From contig JAICXJ010000001.1 in assembly GCA_025980465.1 (NCBI GenBank), positions 65,705-129,704 on the forward strand: a stretch of 64,000 nt of DNA, in the 5' to 3' direction. The notes beneath the pieces are model-generated. The model ran no database searches. It was given only the letters and a program-made list of their open reading frames with translations, and had not been told where the DNA came from. The translations under genes were made by a program, and so were the position numbers. This stretch comes from Frankiales bacterium (lineage in GTDB: Bacteria; Actinomycetota; Actinomycetes; JAFAQI01). This document shows positions 1,373-41,873 of the stretch, in pieces (position 1 is the first letter of the stretch; each line of letters opens with the position of its first letter).

Positions 1373-1387
1373 CTGACGGCCCGTCAG
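1373..1387. promoter_or_regulatory. Palindromic operator CTGACGGcCCGTCAG (copy 1 of the recurrent CTGACG-N3-CGTCAG motif)
   Basis: Perfect 7-1-7 inverted repeat located 14 bp upstream of the LLM oxidoreductase start. The same 15-mer occurs at 21660. Confidence 0.6.
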
Positions 1388-1407
1388 AAACTCGCGCCAG
1401 TTCCTGG

Positions 1408-1938
1408 TCAGCGGTCGTTGATGACGATGCCGGCTTCGAAGGCGAGCGCAGTCGCCATCGCCGCCAGGTCGCTGGCGTCGAGATGCGCGCGCTTCAGCCC
1501 CGCGGTGCCCGAGATACCCGACAGATCACAGTTGGTGATCGACAGGCACTTCACGTCGGCCGCGTCGAACTGGGCCCGCTGCAGGTCGCAGTCGGCGATC
1601 GTCACGTGCTCGAACGCCGTGTGGTAGAAGTCCGTGCCGGACAGGTCGCAGTCGCGAAACACGACATGCCGCAGCCGGCTGAAGCGCAACGACAGCTCGC
1701 TCGTCGCGCATCCCTCGATCAGCACGTCGTCGAGTTGGCCCTTCGCCAATGTCACGCCCCGGACCCTGGTGCGAAGGACCTCCGCGCGGCGTACGACGTA
1801 GCCGGTTGCGACAACGCCTGAGACATCGCAGTCCTCGAGCTTGAGGTCAAGCCACTCGGGCCGGTCGAGGTCGAGCTCGAGCAGCCGGGCGTCTTTCAGC
1901 CACACGTCGCGGACGTCGCCATCCTCGCAGTCCGGCAT
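1408..1938 (-). CDS. pentapeptide-repeat protein (MfpA/Qnr-like)
   Basis: Tandem A(D/N)LxX pentapeptide repeats run throughout. The ORF track extends to 2013, but that would leave only 11 bp to the divergent methyltransferase, so the internal Met at 1938 was chosen. Confidence 0.7.
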   Translation of the reverse strand: MPDCEDGDVRDVWLKDARLLELDLDRPEWLDLKLEDCDVSGVVATGYVVRRAEVLRTRVRGVTLAKGQLDDVLIEGCATSELSLRFSRLRHVVFRDCDLSGTDFYHTAFEHVTIADCDLQRAQFDAADVKCLSITNCDLSGISGTAGLKRAHLDASDLAAMATALAFEAGIVINDR

Positions 1939-2024
1939 CTCGGCAGCCGGGGTCTGCGCGCTCAGCGACGGCTCGGCGGTGCGATGGGGTCGGCCGCAGG
2001 GTGTGACCGGCATAGGTTGCAGGC

Positions 2025-2796
2025 TATGGCGACACGGGAAGAACGGGCGCGCTCGTTCGGCGCCATCGCCGAGGACTACGACCGGCTCCGTCCTTCGCCG
2101 GCCTCCGACGCAGTCGACTGGCTGGTCCCGCCGGGCTGCACGGTGGCGGTGGACGTCGCGGCCGGCACCGGCCTGTTGACGCGGCAGCTCGCGCAGCGGG
2201 TGCCGCGGGTGATCGCGGTCGAGCCCGATCCGCGGATGCGCGACGTACTCGTGGCCCGCTCGCCTGCGATCGAGGCCCTCGATGGCACCGGCGAGTCGAT
2301 CCCGCTACCGGACCGGTACGCCGACGCGCTGTTCGTCTCATCGGCGTGGCACTGGCTGGACCCCGAGCGTGCGCTTCCAGAAATCGCGCGGGTGCTCCGC
2401 GACGGCGGTCGGCTCGGGGTGCTCTGGACCAGCCGCGACCGCGACATCGAATGGGTGCGCGACCTCGATCGGGGACCGCATGACCCGCCGTGGGACAGCG
2501 ATTCGGAAGCCGCGCATCGGCAACGGCGGGCGATCGGGCTGGAAGACCTCCGCGACTTCGACCACGTCGAGCTGGCGTCGTTCGGGTTCACCCGCCGGAT
2601 GCGCCTCGACGACGTCGTCGAGATGATCGCGACTTACAGCGCCGTCATCACCTCGACCGGGCCGGAGCGAGACGAGCTGCTGGACGCGGCGGGTGCGAAG
2701 CTGACGGCGCGTTTCCCGGGCGAGGACGAGATCGAGGTCCCGATGCGGAGCTGGTGCCTGCGCGCGAGCCGGATCAACCGCCCACGGTGTCAGTAG
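2025..2796 (+). CDS. class I SAM-dependent methyltransferase
   Basis: VDVAAGTGLLTRQL SAM-binding motif I and a Methyltransf_11-like architecture. Confidence 0.75.
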
Positions 2797-3526
2797 TGCT
2801 ACTACGCAGCCGGTTGGCGGCGCGGCTGCCGGCGACGCGGCGGATCTCGGCGACCCGCTCGGCGGTCGGCAGGATGAACAGTCCGGTCGCCTCCGCGGTG
2901 ACCCTGCCGTCCACCGTGATCTCGCCGCTGGCGTGGACCCGCCGGCCGTTGACCGAGTCGGTGCGAGCTCGCAGGACCAGCGGTACGCCGTACGGTGTCC
3001 CGCGGCGATAGCGGATCGTCAGCTCACCTGTCATCGCCGGATGGCCGGACACGATGTTCGCCGAGCCGAGCAGCTGGTCGAGAAGTGCTGCGACCCAGCC
3101 GCCGTGGACGAACCCCGCCGGCCCCTCGTGGATCGCGCGCATCGTCAGCTCGCTCCTGACGCTGCCGTCCTCGCACACCGTGATCGGCATCGGCGGCGCC
3201 ATCGGGTGGGCCCGGCCCAGCACGGCGTTGTAAGGCCGGTCGCCGCGACGCATCCGCTCGACGGGTGGCCACGGCATTCCGGCGGCCAGCCGGCTGCCGT
3301 CGCCGCCACTGAGCCGCTCGGTGAGCTCGTCGACCGCCGCGGCGATCTCGAGCTGCTCGTCGCCGGTTGCATCACTGGTCACCGCCGCATCGAGCAGTGC
3401 CCGCAGCGATGCTGCGAGAAGTTCGGCCGGCCCGTCCTCCGGCTGATCGGTGTAGTCGATCAGTGGCATCAGCGCCGGCGACGACGTCGCGTCCTCGACG
3501 GCCCGGTCTTGGGACTGCGGGGTCAT
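2774..3526 (-). CDS. PaaI-family hotdog-fold thioesterase with N-terminal extension
   Basis: C-terminal hotdog domain (HGGWVAALLDQLLG...GELTIRY) after an acidic N-terminal region. Confidence 0.65.
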   Translation of the reverse strand: MTPQSQDRAVEDATSSPALMPLIDYTDQPEDGPAELLAASLRALLDAAVTSDATGDEQLEIAAAVDELTERLSGGDGSRLAAGMPWPPVERMRRGDRPYNAVLGRAHPMAPPMPITVCEDGSVRSELTMRAIHEGPAGFVHGGWVAALLDQLLGSANIVSGHPAMTGELTIRYRRGTPYGVPLVLRARTDSVNGRRVHASGEITVDGRVTAEATGLFILPTAERVAEIRRVAGSRAANRLRSSTTDTVGG

Positions 3527-4311
3527 GTGCCCGTGAAGTTCGGCGTGCGCTTCTCCTTGAACGCCAGCGTGCCTTCCTTGGCATCGTTGGTGCCGAAGAT
3601 CGTCACGCCGATCTCGAGCTCCTTCGCGAGGCCCTCCGCCTCAGGAAGCCCCTCGCTCTCCTGCACGGCTCGCTTGACCGCCTGCACCGACAGGGGCGCG
3701 TTGGCCGCGATCCGCTCCGCGATCTCCAGCGCGTGCTTGAGTGCCTCGCCGTCGGGCACGACCCGGCCGATCAGACCGATCCGTTCGGCCTCGGCAGCGG
3801 AGATCCGCTCGCCGATGAGCAGCATCTCCATCGCCTTCGTGAAACCGATCTGGCGCCGCAGCCGCACCGTCGATCCGCCGAGCGGGAACAGCCCGCGGGT
3901 CACCTCGGTGATGCCGAAGACAGCGCTCTCACCGGCAACCCGGATGTCGGTCGCCTGCAGGATCTCGGTGCCGCCGGCCAGGGCGTAGCCCTCGACGGCG
4001 GCGATGAGCGGCTTGGTCAGCCGGTGGCTGCGCAGCAGTGCCTTCCAGTGCAGTCCGGCGTCCTCCCGCATCCGCTCGGCCGCTTCCGACGTCGTACCGG
4101 AGGCGTTCATCGCCTTCAGGTCGGCGCCGGAGCAGAACGTTCCGCCGGCTCCGGTGAGTACGGCGCACCGGATCTCGGGATCGCTGTCGACCCGGTCCCA
4201 GGAGTCGGCCAGGCCGACCAGCATCTCCGCGGACAGCGCGTTGCGGGCCTCGGGACGGTTCATCGTCAGGACCAGGACATGGCCCTGCTGCTCGACGTCC
4301 AGATGAGCCAT
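3523..4311 (-). CDS. enoyl-CoA hydratase/isomerase (crotonase family)
   Basis: Crotonase motifs (LTGAGGTFCSGADLK, GYALAGGTEI). ATG at 4311. In operon with the thiolase. Confidence 0.85.
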   Translation of the reverse strand: MAHLDVEQQGHVLVLTMNRPEARNALSAEMLVGLADSWDRVDSDPEIRCAVLTGAGGTFCSGADLKAMNASGTTSEAAERMREDAGLHWKALLRSHRLTKPLIAAVEGYALAGGTEILQATDIRVAGESAVFGITEVTRGLFPLGGSTVRLRRQIGFTKAMEMLLIGERISAAEAERIGLIGRVVPDGEALKHALEIAERIAANAPLSVQAVKRAVQESEGLPEAEGLAKELEIGVTIFGTNDAKEGTLAFKEKRTPNFTGT

Positions 4312-4316
4312 CGCGA

Positions 4317-6853
<2,537 letters not shown>

Positions 6854-19244: not shown

Positions 19245-19259
19245 CTGACGCGGCGTCAG
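19245..19259. promoter_or_regulatory. Palindromic operator CTGACGCgGCGTCAG (copy 3)
   Basis: Perfect 7-1-7 inverted repeat in the divergent hydrolase/WS-DGAT intergenic region. Confidence 0.55.
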
Positions 19260-19281: not shown

Positions 19282-20757
19282 ATGCAGCGACTGGGTGGCT
19301 TGGACTCCGCATTCCTGTATTTCGAGACCCCGACGATGCACATGCATGTCGGCGGTCTGATGCTGGTCGACCCATCGACCGCGCCTAAGCCGTACTCCTT
19401 CGCCGACTATCGCGATTACGTTGCACGACGGCTGCCGCGGGTGCCGGCGTTTCGCCGCAAGCTGGCGACCGTCCCGCTGAACCTCGGAAAGCCGGCGTGG
19501 GTCGAGGACCCCGACTTCGACCTCGACTACCACCTGCATCGGATCACGGTGCCCGCACCGGGTGGTGACCGGGAGACCGCCGACGTCGTCGGCGACATCC
19601 TGTCGCGGCAGATGGACCGAAGCCGGCCGCTGTGGGAGATGTGGGTTGTCGAGGGCCGCGCGGACGGTCTGATCGGCGTCGTCAGCAAGGTGCATCACTC
19701 GTCGATCGACGGCATCACCGGCGCCAACATGATGGCCGAGCTGTTCGACTTCGAGGCTGACGTCGAGAGCGCATCGCCAGCGACGGATGGTTGGGAACCA
19801 GAGCGCAAACCGAGCGACCTGGAAATGGTCGGCCGGGCCTTGGTCGACTGGGCGAAGCGGCCGGCCAGCATCGTGAAGCTGATGCCGGGCACCGTGATGA
19901 GCGTCGGCAAGCTTGCCAACCGCCGGGGTCGCGGCGCCCCGGGAATGCCGGCGCCGTTCAGAGCTCCTCGTACGTCGTTCAACGCGACGGTCACCGCGCA
20001 TCGCACCGTCGCTTACACCGACGTGAAGCTCGACGACATCAAGACGATCAAGAATGTGTTCGGGGTGAAGGTCAACGACGTCGTGATGGCCGTCTGTTCC
20101 GGCGCGCTTCGGAAATACCTCAGCGCTCGCGACGAGCTGCCGGACCGCTCGCTCATCGCCGCGATCCCGATCTCGGTGCACGACCGGAGCGAGGGTGTCG
20201 AGGGCACGACGAAGGTCTCGATCATGTTCTCGTCACTCGCCAGTGACATCGACGATGCGGGGGAGCGGTTGCGCTACATCGCCGAGGTCAACGAGGGCGC
20301 GAAAGAGGACCACGAGCTGGTCGGCGCCAACATGCTGCAGGACTGGGCCGAGCACGCCGCGCCCAACACGTTCTCGCTTGCGGCCCGGATGTATTCCAGC
20401 CTGCGCCTGGCCAATCGCCACCCGGTGGTGCACAACCTGGTCATCTCCAACATCCCTGGGCCGCCGATCCCGTTGTACTTCAACGGCGCGAAGCTGAAGG
20501 TGCTGCACCCGCTCGGTCCGGTGATGGACGGCGCCGGGCTCAACGTCACGGTGCTGTCCAACATGGACTCGATCGGCTTCGGATTCATCGCCTGCAAGGA
20601 GCTCATGCCCGAGCTATGGGATCTCGCCGAGGCCATTCCCGGCGCCGTGGACGAGCTACTTGCGGCGGCGAAGCAGGAAACCGCGCCGAAGCAGAGCACT
20701 AAGAAGCCTGCTGCCTCGACGAAGGCGAGCGCCGCTGCCGCTCGATCCGGCGGCTGA
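19282..20757 (+). CDS. wax-ester synthase / diacylglycerol acyltransferase (WS/DGAT, Tgs)
   Basis: HHSSIDG active-site motif and N-terminal LDSAFLYFE. Confidence 0.85.
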   Translation: MQRLGGLDSAFLYFETPTMHMHVGGLMLVDPSTAPKPYSFADYRDYVARRLPRVPAFRRKLATVPLNLGKPAWVEDPDFDLDYHLHRITVPAPGGDRETADVVGDILSRQMDRSRPLWEMWVVEGRADGLIGVVSKVHHSSIDGITGANMMAELFDFEADVESASPATDGWEPERKPSDLEMVGRALVDWAKRPASIVKLMPGTVMSVGKLANRRGRGAPGMPAPFRAPRTSFNATVTAHRTVAYTDVKLDDIKTIKNVFGVKVNDVVMAVCSGALRKYLSARDELPDRSLIAAIPISVHDRSEGVEGTTKVSIMFSSLASDIDDAGERLRYIAEVNEGAKEDHELVGANMLQDWAEHAAPNTFSLAARMYSSLRLANRHPVVHNLVISNIPGPPIPLYFNGAKLKVLHPLGPVMDGAGLNVTVLSNMDSIGFGFIACKELMPELWDLAEAIPGAVDELLAAAKQETAPKQSTKKPAASTKASAAAARSGG

Positions 20758-21649
20758 CCGACGAGCACGCTTCGAGTAGCACCGGGACGAACTCTTCCGC
20801 GCCGAGCACCAATGCCGCGTGGTGGCCGTCGACCTCGTAGCAGACCGCGCCGGGGATCGCCTCAGCCAGTGCGTGCTGGCGGCGGGTCGGAATGAACCGG
20901 TCGCGGGTCGCGACGATGACCGACGTGGGGACGTCCACCCGGCGGATCCAGGCCGACGAGTCGAACTTGCCGACCGCGTCGATCGCGGCGAGCAGCGACC
21001 ACATGCTGGTGCTGCGGAACTCCGCCATTGCCCAGGGCCCCACCGCCGCGAGGTCCGCGGTCAGCGCCGCCGGGGTGTCGGCCAACCGCGCCGCGAGCCT
21101 CTCCATGCCACTTCGGGCACGGTCGCCGAAGCGCGCCATCGCCGCATTCGTCAGCAGGAACCACAGCCGCTCGGCCGGCTTGCCGCGGTAGTTGCGGGCG
21201 GTTGCGGCGAGCACCAGGCCCTCGACCCGTTCGCGATGGCGGCGCCACACGAGCTGCGCGATCGCGCCGCCCATCGAATAGCCAACGACGGTGAACGTCT
21301 CGACCCCGAGCGCGTCGGCGACGGCGACCACGTCGTCGGCGCAGTCCTCGAGGGAGAACTGGTCGGATTTGATGCCGCGGCCGTGCCAGCGTTGATCGAA
21401 GGTGATGACCCGGTAGCGCTCGGCCAGGGCCGGCATCGAGGGGTACCAGGACAGCGCCGCGGTCGTCGCGAGCGCGTGCACCAGGATCAGCGTCGGCGCG
21501 CCCGGCGGCCCGGGCAGGTCGATCACGCAAGTGCGGCCTCGCTCGCCGAGGTCCACCGGCACGCCGGGCGCGAGGTCGAACGGTCGGGCAGCCTTCGCGA
21601 ACCGACCCAGAGCCCGTCCCACGGACGGCGAGATGCTAGCCATCAGCAA
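20699..21649 (-). CDS. alpha/beta hydrolase
   Basis: GYSMGG nucleophile elbow. The 3' end overlaps the tgs 3' end by about 58 bp (convergent). Confidence 0.75.
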   Translation of the reverse strand: MLMASISPSVGRALGRFAKAARPFDLAPGVPVDLGERGRTCVIDLPGPPGAPTLILVHALATTAALSWYPSMPALAERYRVITFDQRWHGRGIKSDQFSLEDCADDVVAVADALGVETFTVVGYSMGGAIAQLVWRRHRERVEGLVLAATARNYRGKPAERLWFLLTNAAMARFGDRARSGMERLAARLADTPAALTADLAAVGPWAMAEFRSTSMWSLLAAIDAVGKFDSSAWIRRVDVPTSVIVATRDRFIPTRRQHALAEAIPGAVCYEVDGHHAALVLGAEEFVPVLLEACSSVSRRIERQRRSPSSRQQAS

Positions 21650-21659: not shown

Positions 21660-21674
21660 CTGACGGCCCGTCAG
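21660..21674. promoter_or_regulatory. Palindromic operator CTGACGGcCCGTCAG (copy 4; identical to copy 1)
   Basis: Lies 11 bp upstream of the hydrolase start, in the divergent region shared with the fadE34-like gene. Confidence 0.6.
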
Positions 21675-21736: not shown

Positions 21737-21750
21737 TGGAACATGTTCTA
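21737..21750. promoter_or_regulatory. KstR operator TGGAACATGTTCTA
   Basis: Perfect match to TnnAACnnGTTnnA, 11 bp upstream of the fadE34-like start. Confidence 0.7.
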
Positions 21751-31019: not shown

Positions 31020-32153
31020 TCAGGTCAGGACGGCGTCGGCGATGAGGTCGTTGAGGTAGCGCTCGTCCCAGTTGTTCAGTTGCAATGACTTCGCGCGGCG
31101 GAAGAAGAGCTGGATGTCGAACTCCACGGTGAATCCATTGCCACCGAAGATCTGTACGCCGGTCGCGGTCACCTTGCGGTAGGTCTGACAGGCGTAGCTC
31201 TTCGCCATCGGAGCGAGGGTCACGATCGAGCGACCTTCCGATCGCGCCCAGGCTGCTTCCCAGGCCAGTGTTTGCGCGCCGTCGACAGCAGTCGCCGCAT
31301 CGGCGAGATAGTGCGACAGAGCCTGGAAGGCGGCGAGCGGCTTGTCGAACTGCTCACGTGTCTTCGCGTAGTCGACCGTGAGTTCGAGCGCGGCGCGGGC
31401 TCCGCCGGCCGCCTGGGCGGCGATCAAGACAATTGCGTCGAGCATCGTCTCTCGCCAGGCGGTCCACGCCGCACCGGACGCGTGCACGATGGCATCGGCG
31501 CCGACCGCGACGTTGTCGAACTCGACCCGGAACTGCGTGTCGGAGGCAACGGTCAGTTGTTGGGTCAGCGTCACCCCGGGCGCCGCGCTGTCCACGATGA
31601 CCGCGATGACGCCGTCACCCTCCCGTCCGGAGTCGGTCCGGGCGAGCACGATCAGCGCGCCGGCAGCCGCCGCAAACGGCACGTGCTGCTTCGTGCCGGA
31701 CAGCCGCCAGCCGTCGCCATCGGCAGTTGCGCGCAGCGAGATACCAGACGCCGAGAAGCTGCCGCCCGGCTCGAGTGAAGCGACCGAGAGGACGGCCTCG
31801 CCGTTGGCGATCTTGGGAAGCCAACTGCGCTTCAGTGATTCATCGCTCGATCGACCGATCAGACCTGCGGCGAGCACCGCACTGACGAAGTGCGGGCTGG
31901 CGACAAGACTGCGGCCGAACTCTTCATAGACCACTGCGGCGTCGATCATCGACATGCCGCTCCCGCCGTACTCCTCGTCGATGAGCAAGCCCAGCAGGCC
32001 CTGCTCGGCGAACTGGGTCCACAGCGACGGTGGGTAGCCGATCGGATCGTTCTCGAGCTTGCGTACGACGTCGAGGCCACAGTGGCGCTCACAGGTACGT
32101 CGCACGGTGTCGCGCAGGAGATCCTGCTCGGAGGTGAAGTCCAGATCCATCAA
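31020..32153 (-). CDS. acyl-CoA dehydrogenase (ChsE-type subunit)
   Basis: ACAD fold. Last gene of the ACAD-CoA-transferase-hydratase operon. Confidence 0.8.
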   Translation of the reverse strand: MMDLDFTSEQDLLRDTVRRTCERHCGLDVVRKLENDPIGYPPSLWTQFAEQGLLGLLIDEEYGGSGMSMIDAAVVYEEFGRSLVASPHFVSAVLAAGLIGRSSDESLKRSWLPKIANGEAVLSVASLEPGGSFSASGISLRATADGDGWRLSGTKQHVPFAAAAGALIVLARTDSGREGDGVIAVIVDSAAPGVTLTQQLTVASDTQFRVEFDNVAVGADAIVHASGAAWTAWRETMLDAIVLIAAQAAGGARAALELTVDYAKTREQFDKPLAAFQALSHYLADAATAVDGAQTLAWEAAWARSEGRSIVTLAPMAKSYACQTYRKVTATGVQIFGGNGFTVEFDIQLFFRRAKSLQLNNWDERYLNDLIADAVLT

Positions 32154-32162
32154 TGATCTCCG

Positions 32163-32654
32163 TTACGGTTTCCAGGCTTCGCCACGGCGAGACCAGGGAT
32201 TGTCGTCGGGTGACACCGGCACCGCGATCCGACCGGTGCAGGTGGTGCACAGCTTCTCGCCGACCTTCAGGGCGATGTCGACGCCCACCCAGCCGCAGCC
32301 GACATCGTCGGTGTCGGCTGACGTCACGGCGGCGGTGAACACCATCGTGTCGCCGGGGAAGATCGAGTCGATCATCCGGAACGAGAGCCGACCGAGCCGA
32401 CCGGTCGGCCCCGTCCAATCGGTGAGGTAGCGCTCGAACCAGGCGAGCTGATTGGGCGAGTTCAAGAAGATGTCCTTGACGCCGTTGCGCTGGGTGGCGA
32501 ATTGGTAGTCGTGGTGCTGCGGCCGGGTGTCGCGCGTCGCGAGTGCCCCGACCACCACCGTCGTCGCCGTCACGTCGTAGGACAACGGCGGCAGCTCGTC
32601 ACCGACCGCGATGTCGGAGAGGACGAGCCGCTTTGCAATCGTCGGCGCGCTCAC
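32163..32654 (-). CDS. MaoC-like (R)-specific enoyl-CoA hydratase, ChsH1-like
   Basis: Hotdog MaoC dehydratase motifs. GTG start at 32654 chosen; the ORF track extends to 32774 through a Gly-rich low-complexity region. Confidence 0.65.
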   Translation of the reverse strand: MSAPTIAKRLVLSDIAVGDELPPLSYDVTATTVVVGALATRDTRPQHHDYQFATQRNGVKDIFLNSPNQLAWFERYLTDWTGPTGRLGRLSFRMIDSIFPGDTMVFTAAVTSADTDDVGCGWVGVDIALKVGEKLCTTCTGRIAVPVSPDDNPWSRRGEAWKP

Positions 32655-32691
32655 ACGTCCACCGCCGTACCCGCCACCCACATTCGGACTT

Positions 32692-33213
32692 TCATTCCTG
32701 GCCCTTCCGGTAGCCAAAGCCGGTCCACGATTCGACCCCGACCAGATCACCGCGCTGGTTGCGGTACTCGACATCGATGACCCAGAACCGGCCGGTGCCC
32801 AGCTTGGTCTTCTTCTCCGAACTCACCGACCGCAGTCGTTGGCAGGTCGAGAGCAGATCACCGGGGCGGACCGGCTCGTGGAAGATCGTGGTGTTGTCGC
32901 TCATGACGGCCTCAGGCAGGTTGAGCTTCTCCTTCAAGTCGAAATGCACCTGCAGCGGCAGCTTCTGCTTGTCCAGGCCAGGTTGCCAGTGGTGCGGCCG
33001 GAACCAGGTCGAGAGCATCGAGGGCGCAGCGATCGGTCCATCGGTCAGCTCCGCGGCAACCTCGTCGTCCCAGAACAGCGGGTTGCCGTTCTCGACCGAG
33101 GCGCATGCGGTCCAGATGTAGCCGCGCTCGACCGGGAAGTCACCGGTCTCGTCGTACTGCGGTACGTCGATCAGCGCGCTGATCTCTCCCGGCAGATCAT
33201 CGCTCACGTCCAC
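32692..33213 (-). CDS. hotdog-fold protein, ChsH2-like N-terminal domain (no fused DUF35)
   Basis: Resembles the N-terminal MaoC-like half of ChsH2. The DUF35 module is encoded separately near cyp125. Confidence 0.6.
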   Translation of the reverse strand: MDVSDDLPGEISALIDVPQYDETGDFPVERGYIWTACASVENGNPLFWDDEVAAELTDGPIAAPSMLSTWFRPHHWQPGLDKQKLPLQVHFDLKEKLNLPEAVMSDNTTIFHEPVRPGDLLSTCQRLRSVSSEKKTKLGTGRFWVIDVEYRNQRGDLVGVESWTGFGYRKGQE

Positions 33214-33259
33214 CTCCGCACCCAGAACTCAACGGCGGTGCGAGCGCCGGCGCTCGTTG

Positions 33260-34420
33260 TCAATTGATGACTCCCTCGTGACGCAATCCAGCGATCTCGT
33301 CGGTGGTGAGGCCGGCCGCCGCAAGGACCTCGTCGGTGTCGGTCCGCGAGCGGTCCGGCAGGTGGTACGTGTCGGCGCGCTCGGCTCCGGCGAGCAAGGG
33401 CGCAAGCTGCCGGAACGGCTCAGCGTCAGCAGGGCAACCGGTCGCGAGCAGACCGCGATCGGCGAGCGCGGGATCGGCGGCAGCCTCCGCCGCTGTCAGC
33501 ACCGCGGAGACACAGGTGTCGGCCGGCGCGAGCTCGGCAACCCACTGATCGCGAGGCTTGGTGGCGATGACCGCGGCGACCTTGCGGCGTACCTCGTCCT
33601 GAACAGCCCGGTCCATCTGTACCTCGATGTAGTCGGGGAGGCCGATCAGGTTGCAGAAGTTCGCCCAGAACTTCGCCTCGATCGCGGCCACCGCGATCCA
33701 GCCGCCGTCGCTGCAGCGATAGGTGTCGTAGCAGGCGTAGCTGCCCTCGAGCGGCGCACTTCCCGGCGCCTGTTCGTTGCCGGTCGCGAGGACGTCGTCG
33801 ATCTGCAGCGACATCAGCGCGAGGATGCCATCGGCGACGGCGACGTCGAGGTAGGCGCCTTCACCGGTGCGACTGCGCGCCACGAGTGCGGCGAGGATCG
33901 ACATCACGGCCTGCATGCCGCCACCTGCGCTGTCGGCGATGGTCGCGCCCGGCAGTGCGGGCTTACCGTCCTCGGCGCGCTCGCCAGTTGCCAGGAATCC
34001 GCTGACCGCCAGGTAGTTGAGGTCGTGACCGGCCCACTGGCCGCGAGGTCCGCTCTGGCCGTAGCCGCTCGTCGAGCAGTAGATGATTCCGGCGTTGCGA
34101 CCTTTCACGTCGTCGTAGCCGATGCCCAGCCTGCCGACGACGCCGGGACGGAAGCTTTCGATGATCACGTCCGCCGTCTCGGCAAGGCGCAAGAACGTCT
34201 CACGTCCAGCAGCCGCCTTCAGATCGAGTTGGATCCGGCGGGTGCCGCGACCACCGCTGTAGAGATGTGGCTTCGGCGTGATCTGGGTGGCGGCGTCGCG
34301 CGGCATCGGCGAGATCTTGATCACCGTCGCGCCGTAGTCGGCGAGCCAACCCGACGCCCGCACCGCCGGCCCGACACTTGCCAGGTCGAGCACGGTGACG
34401 CCGTCGAGGAGTCCAGGCAT
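33260..34420 (-). CDS. CaiB/BaiF family III CoA-transferase
   Basis: Family III CoA-transferase signature with GxxGP region and catalytic Asp context. Confidence 0.85.
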   Translation of the reverse strand: MPGLLDGVTVLDLASVGPAVRASGWLADYGATVIKISPMPRDAATQITPKPHLYSGGRGTRRIQLDLKAAAGRETFLRLAETADVIIESFRPGVVGRLGIGYDDVKGRNAGIIYCSTSGYGQSGPRGQWAGHDLNYLAVSGFLATGERAEDGKPALPGATIADSAGGGMQAVMSILAALVARSRTGEGAYLDVAVADGILALMSLQIDDVLATGNEQAPGSAPLEGSYACYDTYRCSDGGWIAVAAIEAKFWANFCNLIGLPDYIEVQMDRAVQDEVRRKVAAVIATKPRDQWVAELAPADTCVSAVLTAAEAAADPALADRGLLATGCPADAEPFRQLAPLLAGAERADTYHLPDRSRTDTDEVLAAAGLTTDEIAGLRHEGVIN

Positions 34421-34457
34421 CGGTCAGAAGTTCTCCGTCATCAGAAGCTCTCTGTCT

Positions 34458-35639
34458 TCAGAAGTTCTTGGGCAGCCCGAGCTTGCGCCGGGCGATGATG
34501 TTCTTCTGCACTTCCGACGTACCACCGCCGATGGTGTCGAGCACGGTATAGCGGTACGTCGACTCGGCGCGGCCATTCATCGGCGCGTCTTTGGTGCCGA
34601 CCCGCAGCTGCGTGCCCGGCCCGGGCAGGTCCATCGAGGCGTCGGCGAGCACCTTCGAGAACTCCGTCGCGAACAGCTTGTACTCGCTCGCCTCCGCGGT
34701 CGGCGCCGCGCCGCCCTTCTGCGACTTCGCCAGGAACCGGAAGCCCAGCATGCGTGCCACCTCGGCCTGGGTGACGAGTGCGGCGATGCGCGAGCGCACA
34801 AGCGGGTCGTCGCGTAGTGGCTGACCGTCGATGGTTGCGGTCTTGACGTGATTGATCAGCAGGTCGAGCCGGGCCAGCATCGGCGAGATCGTGAACATCG
34901 TGAACCGTTCGAGGTCGAGTGCCTCGGAGATGTACTGGAAGCCGCGCCCCGGCTCGCCGACGATGTAGTCGTTCGACACCCGGACGTCGTCGAAGAACAC
35001 CGAGTTCGTCCGCTCGTCGCCCATGGTCCAGATTTCCTGGATCGTCAGACCTGGGTGATCCATCGGGATCAGGAACAGCGTGATGCCGCTGTGCTTCGGC
35101 AGCTCCGGGTGGGTGCGGGCGCCGACCCAGTACCAGTCGGCGAAGTGCGCTGAGGTGGTCCAGATCTTCTGCCCGTTGAGCACCCACTCGTCGCCGTCGC
35201 GAACCGCCTGGAGCTGCATCGCCGCGGCGTCGCTGCCCGCCCCTGGCTCGCTGTATCCGACCGCGAACTCGATCTCGGCGTTGAGGATCTTGGGCAGGAA
35301 CTCGGCCTTCAGCTTCTCGCTGCCGTGGCGCAGGATCGTCTTGCCGACGATGCCGACACCCTTGCCGATCTGCGGTCCCCCTCGCTTTGCGAGGGCCTCG
35401 TTGAGCAGATATTCGTAGACGCCGTCGCTGTCCTTGCCGCCGTACTCGACCGGCCAGGTGATGCCGAACCAGCCCTTCTCGGCCATCTTCTTCATGAAGG
35501 CGCGCCGCTCGGGAGTGTCGACGATCTGGGCCATGTTCTCGCGAGTCGGATCGAACACGTCGGGGTCGTGATTGGCGTCGAGGAACTCCTCGACCTCGGC
35601 GAGAAAGGCCCGCTGATCGGCGGTGAACTCGAAGTCCAT
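34458..35639 (-). CDS. acyl-CoA dehydrogenase (ChsE1/ChsE4-like)
   Basis: YSEPGAGSDAAAM and GGGTSEVQKN. Confidence 0.85.
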   Translation of the reverse strand: MDFEFTADQRAFLAEVEEFLDANHDPDVFDPTRENMAQIVDTPERRAFMKKMAEKGWFGITWPVEYGGKDSDGVYEYLLNEALAKRGGPQIGKGVGIVGKTILRHGSEKLKAEFLPKILNAEIEFAVGYSEPGAGSDAAAMQLQAVRDGDEWVLNGQKIWTTSAHFADWYWVGARTHPELPKHSGITLFLIPMDHPGLTIQEIWTMGDERTNSVFFDDVRVSNDYIVGEPGRGFQYISEALDLERFTMFTISPMLARLDLLINHVKTATIDGQPLRDDPLVRSRIAALVTQAEVARMLGFRFLAKSQKGGAAPTAEASEYKLFATEFSKVLADASMDLPGPGTQLRVGTKDAPMNGRAESTYRYTVLDTIGGGTSEVQKNIIARRKLGLPKNF

Positions 35640-35659: not shown

Positions 35660-35674
35660 CTGACGGGTCGTCAG
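35660..35674. promoter_or_regulatory. Palindromic operator CTGACGGgTCGTCAG (copy 5)
   Basis: In the divergent ACAD/ACAD intergenic region. Shares the extended flank CGTCAGATTTGGCC with the copy at 41018. Confidence 0.55.
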
Positions 35675-35729
35675 ATTTGGCCTCCGGGCCGACGAGAGGC
35701 GACCCCCGGCGCCGCTACGATCGCGCTCG

Positions 35730-36740: not shown

Positions 36741-36850
36741 CAGGTCGCGGCGACAGTTCTGGACCGGTGTCCACGGGGGCAGGCTGTGGATACTTTTCCT
36801 TATTTTCCAATGACTTTTCGCTCGATTCTGGCTGCGTAGGCGGCTATGAT

Positions 36851-36866: not shown

Positions 36867-36898
36867 TCCGCTGGTCGAGGGTGGGTTGACGGAAGTGG

Positions 36899-38116
36899 GT
36901 GAGGGAAGTGCGGGCAGCTCAGGCGGTGCTTGAAGCGGTCAGGGCTGCCTCGGCCGTTGACCCGCATGCCACCCCGGACGAGCCGCTTCTCGACGACCTC
37001 GAAGCCTTGCTGGAAGCTCGCCGTCGCCTCGACGGACATTTGGTGAGACTGCTTCAGTCCGCGCACAGCCGAGACGTGACCGCGGACCTTCGAGGCAAGA
37101 ACACCAAGTGGTGGTTGATCGCCGAGCAGCGGCTTGCCGGCGCCGATGCGTCCCGGCTGATGAAGGTCGCGACCGCGCTGCCCGCCCGCCCGGCCATCGC
37201 GGACGCCCTCGCCGAAGGCCACATCAGTGTCGACCACGCTGCCCCGATCGTTGCGACCGTGGCGAAGCTGCACCCGCAAGACAAGGACCTCTCCGAGAAG
37301 ATTCTTGTCGAGGCCTCGCACGGGTTGGACCCCGACCTGATCCGCAGATTGTGCGTGAAGACCCTCGATGCCGCTGCCGCTGGGGAGAGCGCGGAGGAAC
37401 GACGGGAACGTGTGCATGGCTCCCGGTACCTGAATCTGCTCGACACCTGGCAGGGCATGACTCGCATCGAGGGGATGCTCACGGCCGAGCAAGGTGCGTC
37501 GCTTCGCGCCGTTCTCGAACCACTCGCCCAGCATCTCGGCCCCGAAGACGACCGCAGCGGCGTCCAGCGCCGCGCCGACGCACTCGCTGCGCTTGCCGGC
37601 GCGGCACTCGGCTTCGACAACTTGCTTCCGGACTTCAACGGCGAGCAGCCACATGTCAACGCGGTCATGCAGTACGCCCCGCTCCTCGACGCGCTTCGCC
37701 CATTCGCCGACAAGCCGGTGACCGATGACGGCGGTTTCACCATCAACGGCACCGAGGTGTCGCCTGCGACTGCGCGGATGCTCGCGTGCGACGCGCAGGT
37801 CATCCCGGTGGTGATGCGCGGCGACAGCGAAGTCCTCGACATCGGCCGCGCCAGCCGGGTCTGGCCACGAGCGATCCGCAAAGCGCTGCAGCTTGAGGAC
37901 AACGGCTGCGGCTGGCCTGGCTGCCGACTGCCGTTGTGGGCTTGCCGGATCCATCACCTGGCGTGGTGGGAACGCGATCACGGACCTACCTCGAAGCACA
38001 ACGGCGTGCATCTTTGCCGCTTCCACCATTGGTTGGTCCACAACAAGCCGTGGATGATCTGGCGCAACGAGGCCGGACTAATCGAAGTCGCCCGCGGCCG
38101 GATCAGCCGAACGTGA
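36899..38116 (+). CDS. DUF222 + HNH endonuclease-domain protein (REP13E12-like family)
   Basis: C-terminal HNH motif (CGWPGC...HHLAWWERDHGPTSKHNGVHLCRFHH). N-terminal DUF222. AT-richer leader. Confidence 0.85.
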   Translation: MREVRAAQAVLEAVRAASAVDPHATPDEPLLDDLEALLEARRRLDGHLVRLLQSAHSRDVTADLRGKNTKWWLIAEQRLAGADASRLMKVATALPARPAIADALAEGHISVDHAAPIVATVAKLHPQDKDLSEKILVEASHGLDPDLIRRLCVKTLDAAAAGESAEERRERVHGSRYLNLLDTWQGMTRIEGMLTAEQGASLRAVLEPLAQHLGPEDDRSGVQRRADALAALAGAALGFDNLLPDFNGEQPHVNAVMQYAPLLDALRPFADKPVTDDGGFTINGTEVSPATARMLACDAQVIPVVMRGDSEVLDIGRASRVWPRAIRKALQLEDNGCGWPGCRLPLWACRIHHLAWWERDHGPTSKHNGVHLCRFHHWLVHNKPWMIWRNEAGLIEVARGRISRT

Positions 38117-38210
38117 AGGCTTTGCTCCTTCGAATCGTGCGGACTACAGCTCGCGACACAGCACGCTCACGCGGACGGATGCCCATACGCCGGCGCTAAC
38201 CCCAGGTTCG

Positions 38211-39872
38211 TCAGCGGCGGCGGATTCTTCGGTCGCCGAGCACGATGCTGATCAGCAGGTAGGCGCCTCCGACCGCGGCGATGAGGAAGACGACGAACGC
38301 GAGGGCTGGGTATCCAGCGACCCTCGCCGACGTGTGCACCCGCGTGAGCAGAGCCGCACCGATGATGAGGGCGGCAAGGATCAGCCCGGTCGCCATGCGA
38401 TTCGCGACTCGATGCAGTCCGCGCAGTAACTCGCCCTCGTCGAACGCGTCGACCTTGATCTCGAATCGGCCGTCGCTGAGCACGTCCATCACGCGGTTGA
38501 CTCGGCCGGGCAGCTTCTCGGCGAACTCCTTGGCGTCCATCGCGGCGCTGACCATGCCGGACAGCGTCGGTCGGCTGGCTTGGCCGAGCAGGACCATCCC
38601 GCGCTCGCGCACGACCTCCACCGGTGCGATCTGTGGGTCGAGCTTGCGCGCCACCATGTCGAGGTTCAGCAGCGCCTTGCCCACCATCGACAGCTCCGGC
38701 GGCGGCCGGAGGCCCGCCGCCGCGCACGCGCGGGTCAGGTCGAGTACGACGTGGCCGACGTCGAGCTGTTCCAATGTGTTGTCGCCGGCGCGGTCGACCA
38801 GCTCAGCAATGTCCGCATCGAACGACCGCTCGTCGACCTCCCCGGGCGGGCTCTCGCACATGCTGCGCGCGGACTTCGCGACGTCATCGGATCTGCCATC
38901 GCTCAATGCCACGAGCAGCCGGATCAGCTGGTCTCGAAGCGCCGGTGGCACCCGGGCCACCATGCCGAGGTCGATGATGCCGATCCGGCCGTCGGGAGTG
39001 AGGATGAGGTTTCCGGGATGCGGGTCGGCATGGAAGAAGCCCTCGACCAGGATCTGATCCAGATACAGATCGAACAGCGCGCGGGCCAACCCCGCTCCGT
39101 CGACGTCGAGGAGTGCGACCGGCGAGACGGCGGTGATCTTCTGCCCGGCGATGTAGTCCATCGTGAGCACGCGGCCGCTGGTCAGGTCATCGAACGGCCG
39201 GGGCACGATCAGGGCGGGATAGCCGGCGGCGATCTCGCTCAGTCGGGTGAGGTGGGCGGCCTCGCGGCGGTAGTCGAGCTCACCGATGAGGGACCGGCGA
39301 AACTGGGCCAGGATGTCGGTGAACCCGAGCAGGCTGCCGGTCCGGGTGTGGCGCTCGAGCCGCTCCGCGATCGACTCGAGCACCTCTAGGTCGTTGAAGA
39401 CCTGCTGCCGGACGCCCGGTCGCTGCACCTTGACGGCGACCCGGGCGCCGTCGCGGGTTACCGCACGATGCACCTGCCCGATCGACGCGGTCGCAAGCGG
39501 CAGCTCGTCGAACTCCGGGAAGATGCGCGGCAGCCGCACGCACAGCTCTTCTTCGACGGTCTGTCTGATCTCCTCGAAGGGGACCGGCTCAAGCGAGTCC
39601 TGCAGCCGGGCGAGCGCGTCGAGATAGGGGGCCGGCAGCAGATCCGCGCGGGTCGAGAGCAGCTGACCGAGCTTGATGAACGTCGGTCCGAGCCGTTCCA
39701 GATCAGCGGCGAGCTCGTCGGCCTCAGCGCGGGTGGCCGGGGTTTCGGCGTCCCGCGCGAGCGTCGTGTCGAGTCCTGCCTGGCGGACGAGATCAGAACG
39801 GCCGTGCTTGATCAGCAGGCGTCCGATCTCGGCGTAGCGCCGCAGATGCGTCGGCGCGGAGGACGCAGTCAT
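38211..39872 (-). CDS. ABC1/UbiB/AarF-family atypical kinase with C-terminal TM segments
   Basis: ABC1 kinase motifs (ASIGQVHRA, HADPHPGN, IIDLG). Confidence 0.85.
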   Translation of the reverse strand: MTASSAPTHLRRYAEIGRLLIKHGRSDLVRQAGLDTTLARDAETPATRAEADELAADLERLGPTFIKLGQLLSTRADLLPAPYLDALARLQDSLEPVPFEEIRQTVEEELCVRLPRIFPEFDELPLATASIGQVHRAVTRDGARVAVKVQRPGVRQQVFNDLEVLESIAERLERHTRTGSLLGFTDILAQFRRSLIGELDYRREAAHLTRLSEIAAGYPALIVPRPFDDLTSGRVLTMDYIAGQKITAVSPVALLDVDGAGLARALFDLYLDQILVEGFFHADPHPGNLILTPDGRIGIIDLGMVARVPPALRDQLIRLLVALSDGRSDDVAKSARSMCESPPGEVDERSFDADIAELVDRAGDNTLEQLDVGHVVLDLTRACAAAGLRPPPELSMVGKALLNLDMVARKLDPQIAPVEVVRERGMVLLGQASRPTLSGMVSAAMDAKEFAEKLPGRVNRVMDVLSDGRFEIKVDAFDEGELLRGLHRVANRMATGLILAALIIGAALLTRVHTSARVAGYPALAFVVFLIAAVGGAYLLISIVLGDRRIRRR

Positions 39873-40017
39873 GCCAGGCACATTCCCCGGCTGACCGGCA
39901 ATTAGCCGTGACCGATCTTCTCATGACGCAGGCACGGTCGCGGCGGCGCTCCGACCAACTTCAAGGCGCGCGCCAGGCAGCGCCCCCGCTCGTGATCTTG
40001 CGCCTACGCTTCGGACG

Positions 40018-40320: not shown

Positions 40321-40364
40321 CCGGCACCACGTCGACGGCTTTCTCGACCAGCTGACCAACCGGC

Positions 40365-40973
40365 TCAGCGTTTCGGCACCTTCGGCCCGGTGACGCCCCA
40401 GTAGATGAGCCGGATCATCGCTTCGCGGACCTCGGCGAAGGAGATGTCCCACGCCTCGAAGCCCATCTGATGCCCGGCCATCTGAGGCAGCATCCCGATC
40501 AGCGCGCCCGCCATCGCCATCGGCTCGACCTCGGCGGCGTCGCCCTGCACCGTCGTGATCTCCGCGGCCAGAGCTTTCGTCATGCCGTTGAGGATCAGGG
40601 TGCGGAGGTGGCGGAACCGCTTGTCGCCCTCGGTCGAGAGCAGGTCGACAACGCGCAGTGTCGGCCGGTGGGTTCGGTAGAAGTCCAGGAAGCCGTCGAC
40701 CAGCGCTTCGGCGCTGTCGACCCCGGCCGGACCGCTCCACGCTCGCTGCGAGATCAACTCGACGAGCCGCTGGCCTTCCTCGACGGTCTGTTCGGCCACT
40801 GCCAGAAGGACGGTCTCGAGATCGACGAAGTACTGGTAGAACGTCGCCGGCGAGGTGCCGGCGGCACGGGTGATGTCGGTGACCTTCAGGTCGCGGTACG
40901 ACGAGGACCCGAGCAGGCCGATCGTGCATTCGACGAGCCGTTGGCGGGTGGCCAGACCGCGACGGCCGGGCAC
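40365..40973 (-). CDS. TetR-family transcriptional regulator (not KstR; candidate binder of the CTGACG-N3-CGTCAG motif)
   Basis: HTH region LKVTDITRAAGTSPATFYQYFVDLETVLL. GTG at 40973 chosen; the ORF track extends to 41627, and an alternative ATG at 41090 overlaps the SDR stop. Confidence 0.7.
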   Translation of the reverse strand: MPGRRGLATRQRLVECTIGLLGSSSYRDLKVTDITRAAGTSPATFYQYFVDLETVLLAVAEQTVEEGQRLVELISQRAWSGPAGVDSAEALVDGFLDFYRTHRPTLRVVDLLSTEGDKRFRHLRTLILNGMTKALAAEITTVQGDAAEVEPMAMAGALIGMLPQMAGHQMGFEAWDISFAEVREAMIRLIYWGVTGPKVPKR

Positions 40974-41017
40974 GCGGCCGTCGACCGCGCGCAGCGCAGC
41001 AACGTCGTGGGGAGTTC

Positions 41018-41032
41018 TTGACGCCCCGTCAG
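41018..41032. promoter_or_regulatory. Palindromic operator TTGACGCcCCGTCAG (copy 6) upstream of the TetR gene
   Basis: Lies 45-59 bp upstream of the proposed TetR GTG start. Identical to the copy at 5546. Confidence 0.55.
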
Positions 41033-41086
41033 ATTTGGCCACGATCGCGATCGTAACGGGTGGTCCCGCCAGGCATGTGATGACGC

Positions 41087-41836
41087 TCATTCGTGAGCCG
41101 CGACGGACAGGAACGGCGGCGGTTCGCCACCGCCGTGGACCGCAAGGTCGGCACCGGTGACGAACCCGGCCTCCGGCGAAGCGAGGAACAGGCAGGCGCC
41201 GAGCACATCGGCCGGCCGTGCCATCCGCTTCATCGGTATCGTCTGCCCGACCCGAGCGATCCCGGCCTCGTCGCCGTAGAACAGCGCAGCCTGCTCGGTC
41301 TCGAGGTAGCCGACGGTCACCATGTTCACCCTCACCGCGGGCGCCCACTCCATCGCCAGCGATCGGGTGAGGTTGCCCAGCCCCGCCTTTGCCGCGCCGT
41401 ACGCCGCACTCCCGGGTGAGGGCCGGGCGCCGGACAGGCTTCCGATGTTGATGATCACGCCGCCGCCGTCCTGGTCCTTCATGACGGCATACGCGGCCTG
41501 GGCGACGTAGAACGGCGCGAGCAGGTTGAGCGCGACGATTTTCTGGATCAGATTGGGGGATGCCTCGGCAGCGGGAGTCGGGGGCGTCCCGCCCGCGTTG
41601 TTGATCACGACGTCGAGCCGGCCCCATCGTTGCAACGCAGCGTCGACGACGGTCGAAGCCGACTCCGGATCGCGCAGATCCGCTGCGACGAAGTCATCGA
41701 CCGCCGGCTCCGGCGCCGATCGCGCGCAGATCAGCACCTGTGCACCGGCATCGCGGAAGCCTTGCGCCAGGCCACGTCCGAGCCCCTTGGTGCCGCCGGT
41801 GACGAGGGCGACTCGGCCGGTCAGGTCGACACTCAC
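41087..41836 (-). CDS. SDR-family oxidoreductase (Rv3549c/IpdF-neighbourhood type)
   Basis: TGGTKGLG and YGAAK motifs. Divergent from the echA20-like gene. Confidence 0.8.
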   Translation of the reverse strand: MSVDLTGRVALVTGGTKGLGRGLAQGFRDAGAQVLICARSAPEPAVDDFVAADLRDPESASTVVDAALQRWGRLDVVINNAGGTPPTPAAEASPNLIQKIVALNLLAPFYVAQAAYAVMKDQDGGGVIINIGSLSGARPSPGSAAYGAAKAGLGNLTRSLAMEWAPAVRVNMVTVGYLETEQAALFYGDEAGIARVGQTIPMKRMARPADVLGACLFLASPEAGFVTGADLAVHGGGEPPPFLSVAAHE

Positions 41837-41858
41837 CCGTATATGGTGACACCGAAAT

Positions 41859-41873
41859 CTGACGGTGTGTCAG
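41859..41873. promoter_or_regulatory. Palindromic operator CTGACGGtGTGTCAG (copy 7, degenerate right arm)
   Basis: In the divergent SDR / echA20-like intergenic region. Confidence 0.45.

Follow-up and report, generated by a model that had tools for sequence, protein, structure and literature searches.

A palindromic candidate operator and its probable TetR_C_38 regulator in a steroid and lipid catabolic cluster of a Frankiales bacterium

In a 64,000-nt stretch of a Frankiales bacterium genome (contig JAICXJ010000001.1, positions 65,705–129,704; the whole of it is called the window here), a 15-bp palindrome, CTGACG-N3-CGTCAG, occurs seven times among genes that Pfam and NCBIfam place in a steroid and lipid catabolic cluster. 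The palindrome is probably the operator of a homodimeric TetR-family repressor, for which the TetR_C_38 protein encoded at 40365–41042 is the most likely candidate. The motif is non-random and biased toward promoters, it co-occurs with the regulator gene in other Actinomycetota, and it is conserved at orthologous promoters. This comparison of genomes gives good support to a regulator-operator pair in which the regulator would control its own gene and a dispersed regulon.

A recurrent palindrome in the window

A pattern search of the window, whose G+C content is 65–70%, returned four exact copies, starting at 1373, 19245, 21660 and 35660, where 0.02 would be expected, and this number was reached in 0 of 100 shuffles. 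Three further copies carry a single mismatch, namely those at 5546 and 41018, which both begin with TTGACG, and that at 41859. Seven copies with up to one mismatch stand against 0.69 expected, and none of 100 dinucleotide shuffles gave seven. When two mismatches were allowed, 10 matches were found against 9.3 expected; therefore the additional matches at 4710, 32318 and 45723 are regarded as chance. All seven copies listed in an earlier note on this DNA were recovered at their positions (Table 1). The genome-wide search proposed there, with two mismatches, runs at a tolerance at which matches in the window are noise, so that such a search should allow one mismatch at most.

With the flanking bases included, the palindrome is about 19 bp long, a-T-CTGACG-(g/c)-n-(c/g)-CGTCAG-A-t, and this symmetric extension is real. 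The copies share only these 15–19 bp, and their further flanks are unrelated. As to the trailing sequence that the earlier note saw behind the motif, at copy 6 it is ATTTGGCC, the reverse complement of the TetR start codon and codons 2–3, and at copy 5 it is not kept in relatives. Copies 2, 3, 4, 5 and 7 lie in divergent regions, and copies 1 and 6 between co-directional genes. The description of the sites as mostly divergent therefore stands for five of the seven; the statement that none is at a 3' end does not, since copies 1 and 6 also lie 3' of the upstream co-directional gene. Likewise, the placement of every copy 10–60 bp upstream of a start codon fails for copy 6, which lies inside the regulator gene. 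The sites reach up to 40 kb from that gene.

Table 1. Candidate operator copies, regulators and putative target genes in the window.
Feature	Position	Strand	Sequence or content	Basis or remark
Candidate operator copy 1	1373..1387		CTGACGGCCCGTCAG	Sequence reading
Candidate operator copy 2	5546..5560		TTGACGCCCCGTCAG	Pattern search and promoter scan
Candidate operator copy 3	19245..19259		CTGACGCGGCGTCAG	Sequence reading
Candidate operator copy 4	21660..21674		CTGACGGCCCGTCAG	Sequence reading
Candidate operator copy 5	35660..35674		CTGACGGGTCGTCAG	Sequence reading and relatives
Candidate autoregulatory operator copy 6	41018..41032		TTGACGCCCCGTCAG	Within TetR codons 4–8 (S D G A S)
Candidate operator copy 7	41859..41873		CTGACGGTGTGTCAG	Divergent SDR/echA20-like promoter region
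Candidate cognate TetR-family regulator	40365..41042	-	225 aa; TetR_N and TetR_C_38 (PF19352)
LLM (luciferase-like) oxidoreductase	372..1358	-		Pfam/NCBIfam; putative target of copy 1
cyp125-like cytochrome P450	5611..6864	+	Start GTG 5611 after AGAAGGG	Putative target of the copy-2 promoter
KstR homologue	14585-15190	+		E 1e-37 to M. tuberculosis KstR structures; context only, outside the TetR_C_38 system
WS/DGAT acyltransferase	19282..20757	+		Putative target of copy 3; LipQ-like esterase divergent
Alpha/beta hydrolase	20699..21643	-		Putative target of copy 4; two-domain acyl-CoA dehydrogenase (ACAD) divergent
ACAD operon	31020..35639	-	ACAD, family-III CoA-transferase, two MaoC/hot-dog hydratase-like genes, second ACAD	Downstream of copy 5
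Short-chain dehydrogenase/reductase (SDR) gene	41087..41836	-		Immediately upstream of TetR, co-directional
echA20-like/ipd block	41908..45341	+	echA20-like enoyl-CoA hydratase, two IpdAB-like CoA-transferase subunits, IpdC-like NMO-family reductase

The candidate regulator and its embedded site

Three TetR-family genes are found in the window (40365–41042, 14585–15190 and 53332–53958), and the first of these carries copy 6. Its start had been placed at 40973 and was revised to the GTG at 41042 on the basis of homologue lengths (mostly 220–241 aa), the shared N-terminus M-(A/P)-(K/R)-S-(D/E)-x-x-S ... PLRAVDGRVPGRRG and the aligned promoter order. In the window and six relatives (L001, L002, L004 and L085–L087), a -10-like TACGAT or TAGCAT is followed by 7 nt, a GTG or ATG start, 9 nt and then TCT GAC Gnn nCG TCA. 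Because these seven aligned loci share this order, the start is taken as GTG 41042 and copy 6 as codons 4–8. In the window the -10-like TACGAT lies at 41055–41050, and copy 6 occupies +10 to +24, counted from the start codon, where transcription is inferred to begin as well; the site has the same +10 to +24 position in the six relatives.

Within these codons, the third positions are invariably T, C, G and A, whereas variation is free in the central triplet and in the adjoining codons. The conservation of this 5' end follows the motif and not codon degeneracy. The serine codons that it contains are rare ones, TCT and TCA making up 3.0 and 4.4% of the Ser codons in this genome. Furthermore, residues 1–17 are disordered in the AlphaFold2 (AF2) model, and such a tail can, as far as the model goes, tolerate an embedded DNA signal.

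The AF2 model, built with 49 sequences (pLDDT 87, pTM 0.79), has nine helices in the canonical TetR fold, three of them N-terminal. The TetR_N domain (PF00440) scored 25.1 bits against a cutoff of 24, and the best sequence match in the PDB was Rv0078 (E 5.6e-5). No KstR or KstR2 chain was among the PDB sequence matches at E ≤ 0.01, and no NCBIfam equivalog reached its cutoff for this protein. As the earlier note maintained, the TetR at copy 6 is not KstR, whose homologue is the gene at 14585–15190. Foldseek returned 146 matches in the PDB at E ≤ 0.001, and TetR-family regulators make up nearly all of the 50 that were listed. The nearest solved structures were EthR (TM about 0.8, target-normalised), followed by DesT with palmitoyl-CoA, FasR with C20-CoA and SaFadR, all at ≤20% identity. 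These neighbours fit a lipid or acyl-CoA inducer and do not show one. EthR, DesT, FasR and the FadR type share the long helical ligand domain with the window protein, and the ligands of several are acyl-CoA or long acyl chains. They have other operators and other regulons; EthR, for example, occupies a 55-bp region as an octamer.

The family is of modest size, with 119 clusters (50% identity) at E ≤ 1e-30 and 629 at E ≤ 1e-10. The ten highest-scoring of the 50%-identity clusters that were looked up bear generic "TetR/AcrR family" names and come from Streptomyces and metagenome-assembled genomes (MAGs). About 15 of the best 150 family representatives (P0130, P0137, P0139, P0142 and others) are 435–486 aa long with two matched stretches; these are tandem-duplicated, Mce3R-like "double TetR" forms of the family.

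Motif and regulator in other Actinomycetota

For the comparison, one genome per GTDB species was scanned with the TetR alignment, exact peptide words being required, and the best 80 of the 590 loci found were used. They consist of Mycobacteriales/Frankiales MAGs at 62–83% identity, Acidimicrobiia and other Actinomycetota MAGs at about 49–55%, and about 59 Streptomyces at about 48–52%. Around the TetR orthologues the motif, with up to one mismatch, was counted 274 times in 1.47 Mb, where a first-order Markov model predicts 11.3, an enrichment of about 24-fold. It was present in 77 of the 80 genomes, which had been picked by TetR alone and belong to two classes. At these TetR-bearing loci, the co-occurrence of motif and regulator that the earlier note had wished to see checked was found, and so was the promoter enrichment, as follows.

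The placement of 289 sites, from the 80 loci, three more relatives and the window, was assigned with a crude longest-ORF caller based on third-position G+C (GC3). Divergent intergenic DNA, which makes up 3.5% of these loci, holds 166 of the sites, tandem intergenic DNA (12%) holds 54 and convergent intergenic DNA (10%) holds 3. Another 36 lie more than 45 nt inside a longest-ORF call (74% of the DNA), a class that includes false positives such as copy 2 of the window because longest ORFs over-extend, and 30 sites at locus edges are unclassified. The flanking genes most often encode SCP-x-type thiolases (92), AMP-binding acyl-CoA synthetases (44) and ACADs (42, three of them in the window). ADP-forming acyl-CoA synthetases, FMO, amidohydrolase_2, LLM, SDR and ECH (enoyl-CoA hydratase) genes and TetR itself are further recurrent neighbours.

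The close relatives keep the gene order ipdC-ipdB-ipdA-echA20, divergent SDR-TetR, and, further on, the ACAD gene divergent from ACAD-CoA-transferase-hydratase-ACAD, together with the three corresponding sites; the SDR-TetR pair is syntenic in all of them. In relatives at 73–83% protein identity, phylogenetic footprinting showed the motif and the -10 hexamer to be kept in otherwise diverged intergenic DNA. At copy 5, both elements are kept in L001–L003 and L085–L087, where no other intergenic block is conserved, and copy 7 is kept in L001, L003, L004 and L085–L087.

Of 21 non-Streptomyces loci checked, 14 have a site with up to two mismatches either in the roughly 100 nt ahead of the TetR match or within its 5' end. 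In Streptomyces, a degenerate CTGACGGCATGACAG with two mismatches spans the TetR ATG at all six loci checked. A site at or near the TetR start in most lineages, with other sites dispersed around it, gives comparative support to the autoregulation and dispersed regulon that the earlier note had suggested. The recognition helix AGTSPATFYQYF is identical in the window and Streptomyces proteins, whose overall identity is 51%.

The spacing to the promoter is also conserved. Among 116 unique oriented non-Streptomyces flanks, TANNNT starts 7–9 nt past the motif in 20, and it starts exactly 8 nt past the motif in 64 of 436 Streptomyces flanks, other offsets being near zero in both sets. Several Streptomyces loci (L015, L016, L018 and others) carry tandem operator pairs, 27 bp apart from centre to centre, about 7.5 kb upstream of TetR. 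A -10-like TAGCCT or TAACCT sits between the two operators, and the divergon sets an AMP-binding acyl-CoA synthetase gene against a thiolase-like gene and a DUF35 (ChsH2-type OB-fold) gene.

Promoter architecture and the putative regulon

The promoter at copy 2 was called by a strict sigma-70 scan, and the others were read by eye from TANNNT, the spacing to the start codon and the frequency of leaderless genes, which are common in actinobacteria. At copy 2, the left half coincides with the -35 hexamer of the predicted promoter TTGACG-16-CAGAAT (5546–5573, plus strand). At copy 1, on the minus strand, the motif is followed by 1 nt, a -10-like TAACGT, 7 nt and the ATG at 1358 of the LLM oxidoreductase gene, which appears from this spacing to be leaderless; the stop codon of a pentapeptide-repeat gene (1408) lies 21 nt from this copy. 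Copy 3, on the plus strand, ends 8 nt before TAGGAT, which in turn stands 8 nt before the ATG at 19282 of the WS/DGAT (wax ester synthase/diacylglycerol acyltransferase) gene, and it is also upstream of the divergent lipase gene, whose start (19201) is about 50 nt away. On the minus strand, copy 4 precedes 2 nt, TACCGT, 8 nt and the ATG at 21643 of the hydrolase gene, and copy 5 precedes 8 nt, TACAGT, 6 nt and the ATG at 35639 of the ACAD operon. Copy 7 is followed by 10 nt, CACCAT, 6 nt and the GTG at 41836 of the SDR gene, which is its probable target judging from this layout, and it also lies upstream of the Shine-Dalgarno-led echA20 gene.

The 10-mer TACGATCGCG occurs exactly only twice in the window, at 35716–35725 (plus) and 41046–41055 (minus), and both times it is the predicted -10 hexamer and discriminator of a leaderless gene, the ACAD gene at 35730 and the TetR gene at 41042, respectively. 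With one mismatch, it is not enriched in the window (14 against 11.3 expected).

In the proposed mechanism, each helix-turn-helix of the dimer would read one half-site (a)(t)cTGAcg, in which T-G-A is essentially invariant. At copy 5 the central triplet alternates between ACC and GGT among the relatives, so that both orientations occur, which fits symmetric recognition by a dimer. The sites would overlap core promoters in three modes. The distal half-site may coincide with the -35 hexamer (CTGACG or TTGACG, a 16–18 nt spacer and TANNNT), and in the CTGACG-N17-TANNNT geometry it would act as a -35 mimic. In the second mode the motif abuts the -10 hexamer, and in the third it would lie just past the transcription start, as in the leaderless TetR gene (+10 to +24) and in the echA20 leader. 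All these positions are typical of a repressor. Because of this overlap, a bound repressor would block the binding of RNA polymerase or promoter clearance. Release would be caused by an inducer, probably an acyl-CoA or a steroid-derived CoA thioester.

The regulon would include the TetR gene itself, the SDR gene, the echA20-ipdAB-ipdC-like block and the ACAD/CoA-transferase/hydratase operon, and further the cyp125 gene (jointly with KstR), the WS/DGAT gene, the hydrolase gene and the LLM oxidoreductase gene. It would thus hold the position of the mycobacterial KstR2. The earlier list of members, which took in both genes flanking several sites, appears somewhat over-inclusive, because the geometry favours cyp125 and not fadA5 at copy 2, WS/DGAT and not the lipase at copy 3, the hydrolase and not the fadE34-like gene at copy 4, and the minus-strand ACAD operon at copy 5.

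Dual control with KstR had been proposed for two copies. For copy 2 this was retained, since KstR-like boxes flank it at 5513–5526 and 5575–5588, of which one covers the expected transcription start, upstream of the Shine-Dalgarno sequence and the GTG of cyp125; the KstR homologue is, on sequence grounds, the second regulator acting at this region. The case for the other copy is not convincing; near copy 4, the double-ACAD gene on the other side (ATG 21761, divergent) has its own -10, which a KstR-like box (21737–21750) overlaps. Of the boxes, that at 5575 (GAGAACACGTTCTC) is similar to the SAV_7471 site of S. avermitilis quoted in the literature (PMC11584518).

Is the TetR_C_38 protein the binder?

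Several points weigh against the proposed TetR_C_38 system. All loci in the co-occurrence count were chosen for carrying the TetR gene, and the counts are not independent because the 80 loci include many Streptomyces regions that are orthologous to one another. Among the close relatives, L003 has no site at the TetR 5' end, and copy 7 is lost or shifted in L002. The strict sigma-70 scan called no promoter at the six copies other than copy 2. The ligand class is drawn solely from fold neighbours at ≤20% identity. Finally, a tblastn search of plasmids with the TetR gave only Streptomyces paralogues at 32–40% identity, and one of these (L088, Streptomyces sp. NBC_00582, 3971–4603, about 39% identity) keeps the AGTSPATFYQYF helix without any CTGACG-N3-CGTCAG site within 8.5 kb; this paralogue might act on chromosomal sites.

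It is conceivable, if unlikely, that the palindrome is a genuine operator bound by another factor encoded elsewhere, and that the TetR_C_38 gene is just another member of the regulon. The plasmid paralogue agrees with such a binder, as do the distance of up to 40 kb between sites and regulator and the two mismatches of the Streptomyces copy at the TetR start. However, selection of genomes by TetR alone recovers the motif in nearly all of them, no feature persists more widely in the phylogeny than the site at the TetR 5' end, and an invariant motif is always accompanied by an invariant recognition helix. The palindrome with its invariant TGA core moreover has the 6-N3-6 layout of the footprinted Ms6564 operator, and the two other TetR proteins of the window, the KstR homologue and an Ms6564-like protein, have different published operators.

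Comparison with known regulators

The closest functional parallel is KstR2 (Rv3557c), which responds to the CoA thioester of methylhexahydroindanedione propionate (HIP-CoA) in Mycobacterium and Rhodococcus. Like KstR2, the TetR_C_38 protein would be a TetR-family repressor encoded inside a steroid cluster, with a short palindromic operator in the divergent SDR/echA20-ipdAB promoter and at putative ring-C/D ACAD genes, and it would share the autoregulation and the CoA-thioester inducer that are established for KstR2. The two differ in the operator, AnCAAGnnCTTGnT versus CTGACG-N3-CGTCAG, and in the C-terminal domain, and no sequence relationship beyond the family was detected in the PDB search at E ≤ 0.01. 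Another difference is that TetR_C_38 orthologues are conserved in Streptomyces and Acidimicrobiia in non-steroid, beta-oxidation-like contexts. The KstR2 box AnCAAGnnCTTGnT is absent from the 64-kb window, and no KstR2 chain was among the PDB matches at E ≤ 1e-5 of the window's two other TetR proteins. A KstR2 regulon was therefore rejected on both the protein and the operator.

KstR (Rv3574) is likewise a TetR-family repressor of steroid and lipid catabolism, and its boxes share the cyp125/fadA5 region with copy 2. Nevertheless, it is represented by a separate protein of the window with a separate motif, TnnAACnnGTTnnA, whose boxes are at 5513, 5575 and 21737. A KstR regulon was rejected, as the candidate TetR has no KstR match in the PDB and the palindrome is unrelated to TnnAACnnGTTnnA. 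The view that the motif is neither the KstR nor the KstR2 box was thereby upheld.

The system could also have been characterised already under another name, the TetR being, for example, an FdmR orthologue and the palindrome the FdmR motif, which we regard as quite unlikely. FdmR (Rv0238), a regulator of fatty-acid degradation that responds to long-chain acyl-CoA and is conserved in all mycobacteria, is an acyl-CoA-responsive TetR-family repressor of beta-oxidation genes (PMC12403877), and work on M. neoaurum has implicated it in the degradation of the sterol side chain (PMC13520905). With the candidate it shares the TetR family and targets of the ACAD, thiolase and hydratase kind, which are putative for the candidate. 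Mycobacteria are missing from the taxonomic distribution of the TetR_C_38 best hits. Among the best 80 of 590 loci, with identities down to 48%, there is no Mycobacterium, Rhodococcus, Nocardia or Gordonia, and this argues indirectly against FdmR orthology because a pan-mycobacterial orthologue would be expected to rank above Streptomyces in this exact-peptide-word scan. The generic names in the ten top clusters and the lack of an NCBIfam equivalog at cutoff also speak against a known system. A full-text search for the written consensus returned no published description of the motif-regulator pair, FdmR having been compared by taxonomic distribution only.

The Streptomyces orthologue is presumably SCO4421 of S. 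coelicolor, an assignment made from synteny and not from an alignment. The Streptomyces loci place TetR beside a PQQ-repeat Ser/Thr kinase gene of the AfsK type and a glyoxalase-fold gene, and SCO4421 is similarly near afsK. Its published account (PMC3878966) reports that expression is associated with sporulation and that a mutant shows no phenotype, describes the gene as having no known function and, in contrast to the system described here, gives no operator or regulon.

Ms6564 of M. smegmatis, a described activator of DNA-repair genes with the footprinted operator ACGAGACG-N3-CGTCTCGT, is similar in its family, in the 6-N3-6 layout and in the inner GACG...CGTC bases. It differs in the outer bases, GAGACG versus CTGACG, so that the invariant T-G-A is G-A-G there; it belongs to the TetR_C_11 family, and the window has its own Ms6564-like gene. 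The latter (53332–53958; PDB 4jkz and 4jl3, E 2e-12 and 2e-11) adjoins an O6-methylguanine-DNA-methyltransferase-like gene (pair 53332–54659, minus strand). The same pair occurs in the relative L086 (885–2169) and fits the described DNA-repair role of Ms6564.

In M. neoaurum, KstR3 (Mn_4965) is a TetR protein whose operon also encodes a thiolase-like aldolase, a DUF35 protein and an ACAD, and it has no published operator. Its primer-derived termini (N-terminal MTAADTE, C-terminal ...VAGRD) are unlike those of the TetR_C_38 family (...GVTGPKVPKR), which speaks weakly against its belonging there. The published motifs of XNR_0706 (TGCGGGGCGC-N35-GCCCCGCGCT), SAV_7471 (GAGAACN3CGTTCTC), Ms6564, Nocardioides Lcin1 (TCCCGGT[C/G]ACCGGGA), MftR (T-N2-GGCA-N5-TGCC-N2-A) and Rv0158 (YGGCGGBGMCGGCGG) and the TAC...GTA motif of McGuire et al. 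all differ from the palindrome.

DNA site, RNA stem or dispersed repeat

The palindromes might instead act as RNA hairpins, in 5'-UTR (5' untranslated region) stability or attenuation or as terminators without a U-tract. Each copy folds as a hairpin of 6–9 bp with z-scores down to -5, although such scores do not discriminate because any palindrome folds. Furthermore, copies 1 and 6 follow closely on the stop codon of the preceding gene, which runs in the same direction, and copies 6 and 7 would be transcribed. The pattern of substitutions is that of protein recognition. Single mismatches are strongly position-specific: positions 0, 4 and 5 of the half-site account for 59, 48 and 117 cases, and T, G and A for 2, 0 and 3. 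Among the 150 hits with two mismatches, 16 were mirrored (9% expected) and 8 complementary, with no excess of stem-preserving changes. As the mismatches are position-specific and uncompensated, recognition by a protein is preferred to an RNA stem, whose sequence here is uniform and without covariation. In addition, five of the seven copies lie in divergent regions, where no gene ends, and copies 1–5 are upstream of the inferred transcription start. A T-run is absent at all copies, a terminator scan called none, and Rfam gave no hit in the window. An RNA role is therefore very improbable. A dispersed repeat of the REP (repetitive extragenic palindromic) or MIRU (mycobacterial interspersed repetitive unit) type without regulatory role, which a short GC-rich palindrome in several intergenic copies could recall, can practically be dismissed, since only 15–19 bp are common, convergent DNA is nearly devoid of sites, the sites are kept at orthologous positions across genera and classes, and their spacing to the -10 hexamers is fixed; on this point the earlier note, which preferred an operator for its promoter-biased placement, was right.

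Significance of the regulator-operator pair

Returning to the TetR_C_38 protein and its candidate operator aT-CTGACG-N3-CGTCAG-At, the chances seem to us about even that they form an undescribed, ancient lipid-catabolic regulon of Actinomycetes and Acidimicrobiia, which was recruited to ring-C/D genes in place of KstR2 in uncultured Mycobacteriales/Frankiales, and in which the operator in the first codons of the regulator's leaderless gene fixes a rare-codon "S-D-x-x-S" peptide at the disordered N-terminus. In this case, a function and a testable operator would be given to an orphan TetR with wide conservation in Streptomyces, which several other actinobacterial lineages carry as well. A third regulatory circuit would stand beside KstR and KstR2 in actinobacterial steroid catabolism, and the ring-C/D (HIP) genes of uncultured soil lineages would be wired to a different repressor, which would bear on the prediction of steroid degradation and its induction from metagenomes and on the engineering of sterol-converting strains. 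The operator in the first codons would be a clean case of DNA-level constraint on a protein N-terminus. Conceptually, this is an ordinary TetR repressor-operator system, and the new specifics would be a pair that spans two actinobacterial classes, the replacement of KstR2 at the ipd genes and the codon-embedded operator.

Neighbouring genes

The fadA5 gene, which is divergent from the cyp125-like P450 gene, is an equivalog match to the steroid 3-ketoacyl-CoA thiolase, with 668 bits where 515 are required. The echA20-like/ipd block diverges from the SDR-TetR pair and matches the echA20-ipdAB-ipdC arrangement, whose mycobacterial equivalent belongs to the KstR2 regulon. The ring-C/D gene identities at copies 5 and 7 are based on Pfam and synteny, IpdE2 scoring under the NCBIfam cutoff.

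Between the ACAD pair and the TetR gene, the window carries a DUF222 gene (36899–38116, plus strand) and an ABC1/UbiB-type atypical kinase gene (38211–39881, minus strand); DUF222 genes are frequently found together with HNH endonucleases. L085 and L086 carry other genes or none there, so that what separates TetR from the ACAD divergon varies. On the plus strand, 56978–60946 is taken up by one very long ORF (1322 aa), which has a high GC3.

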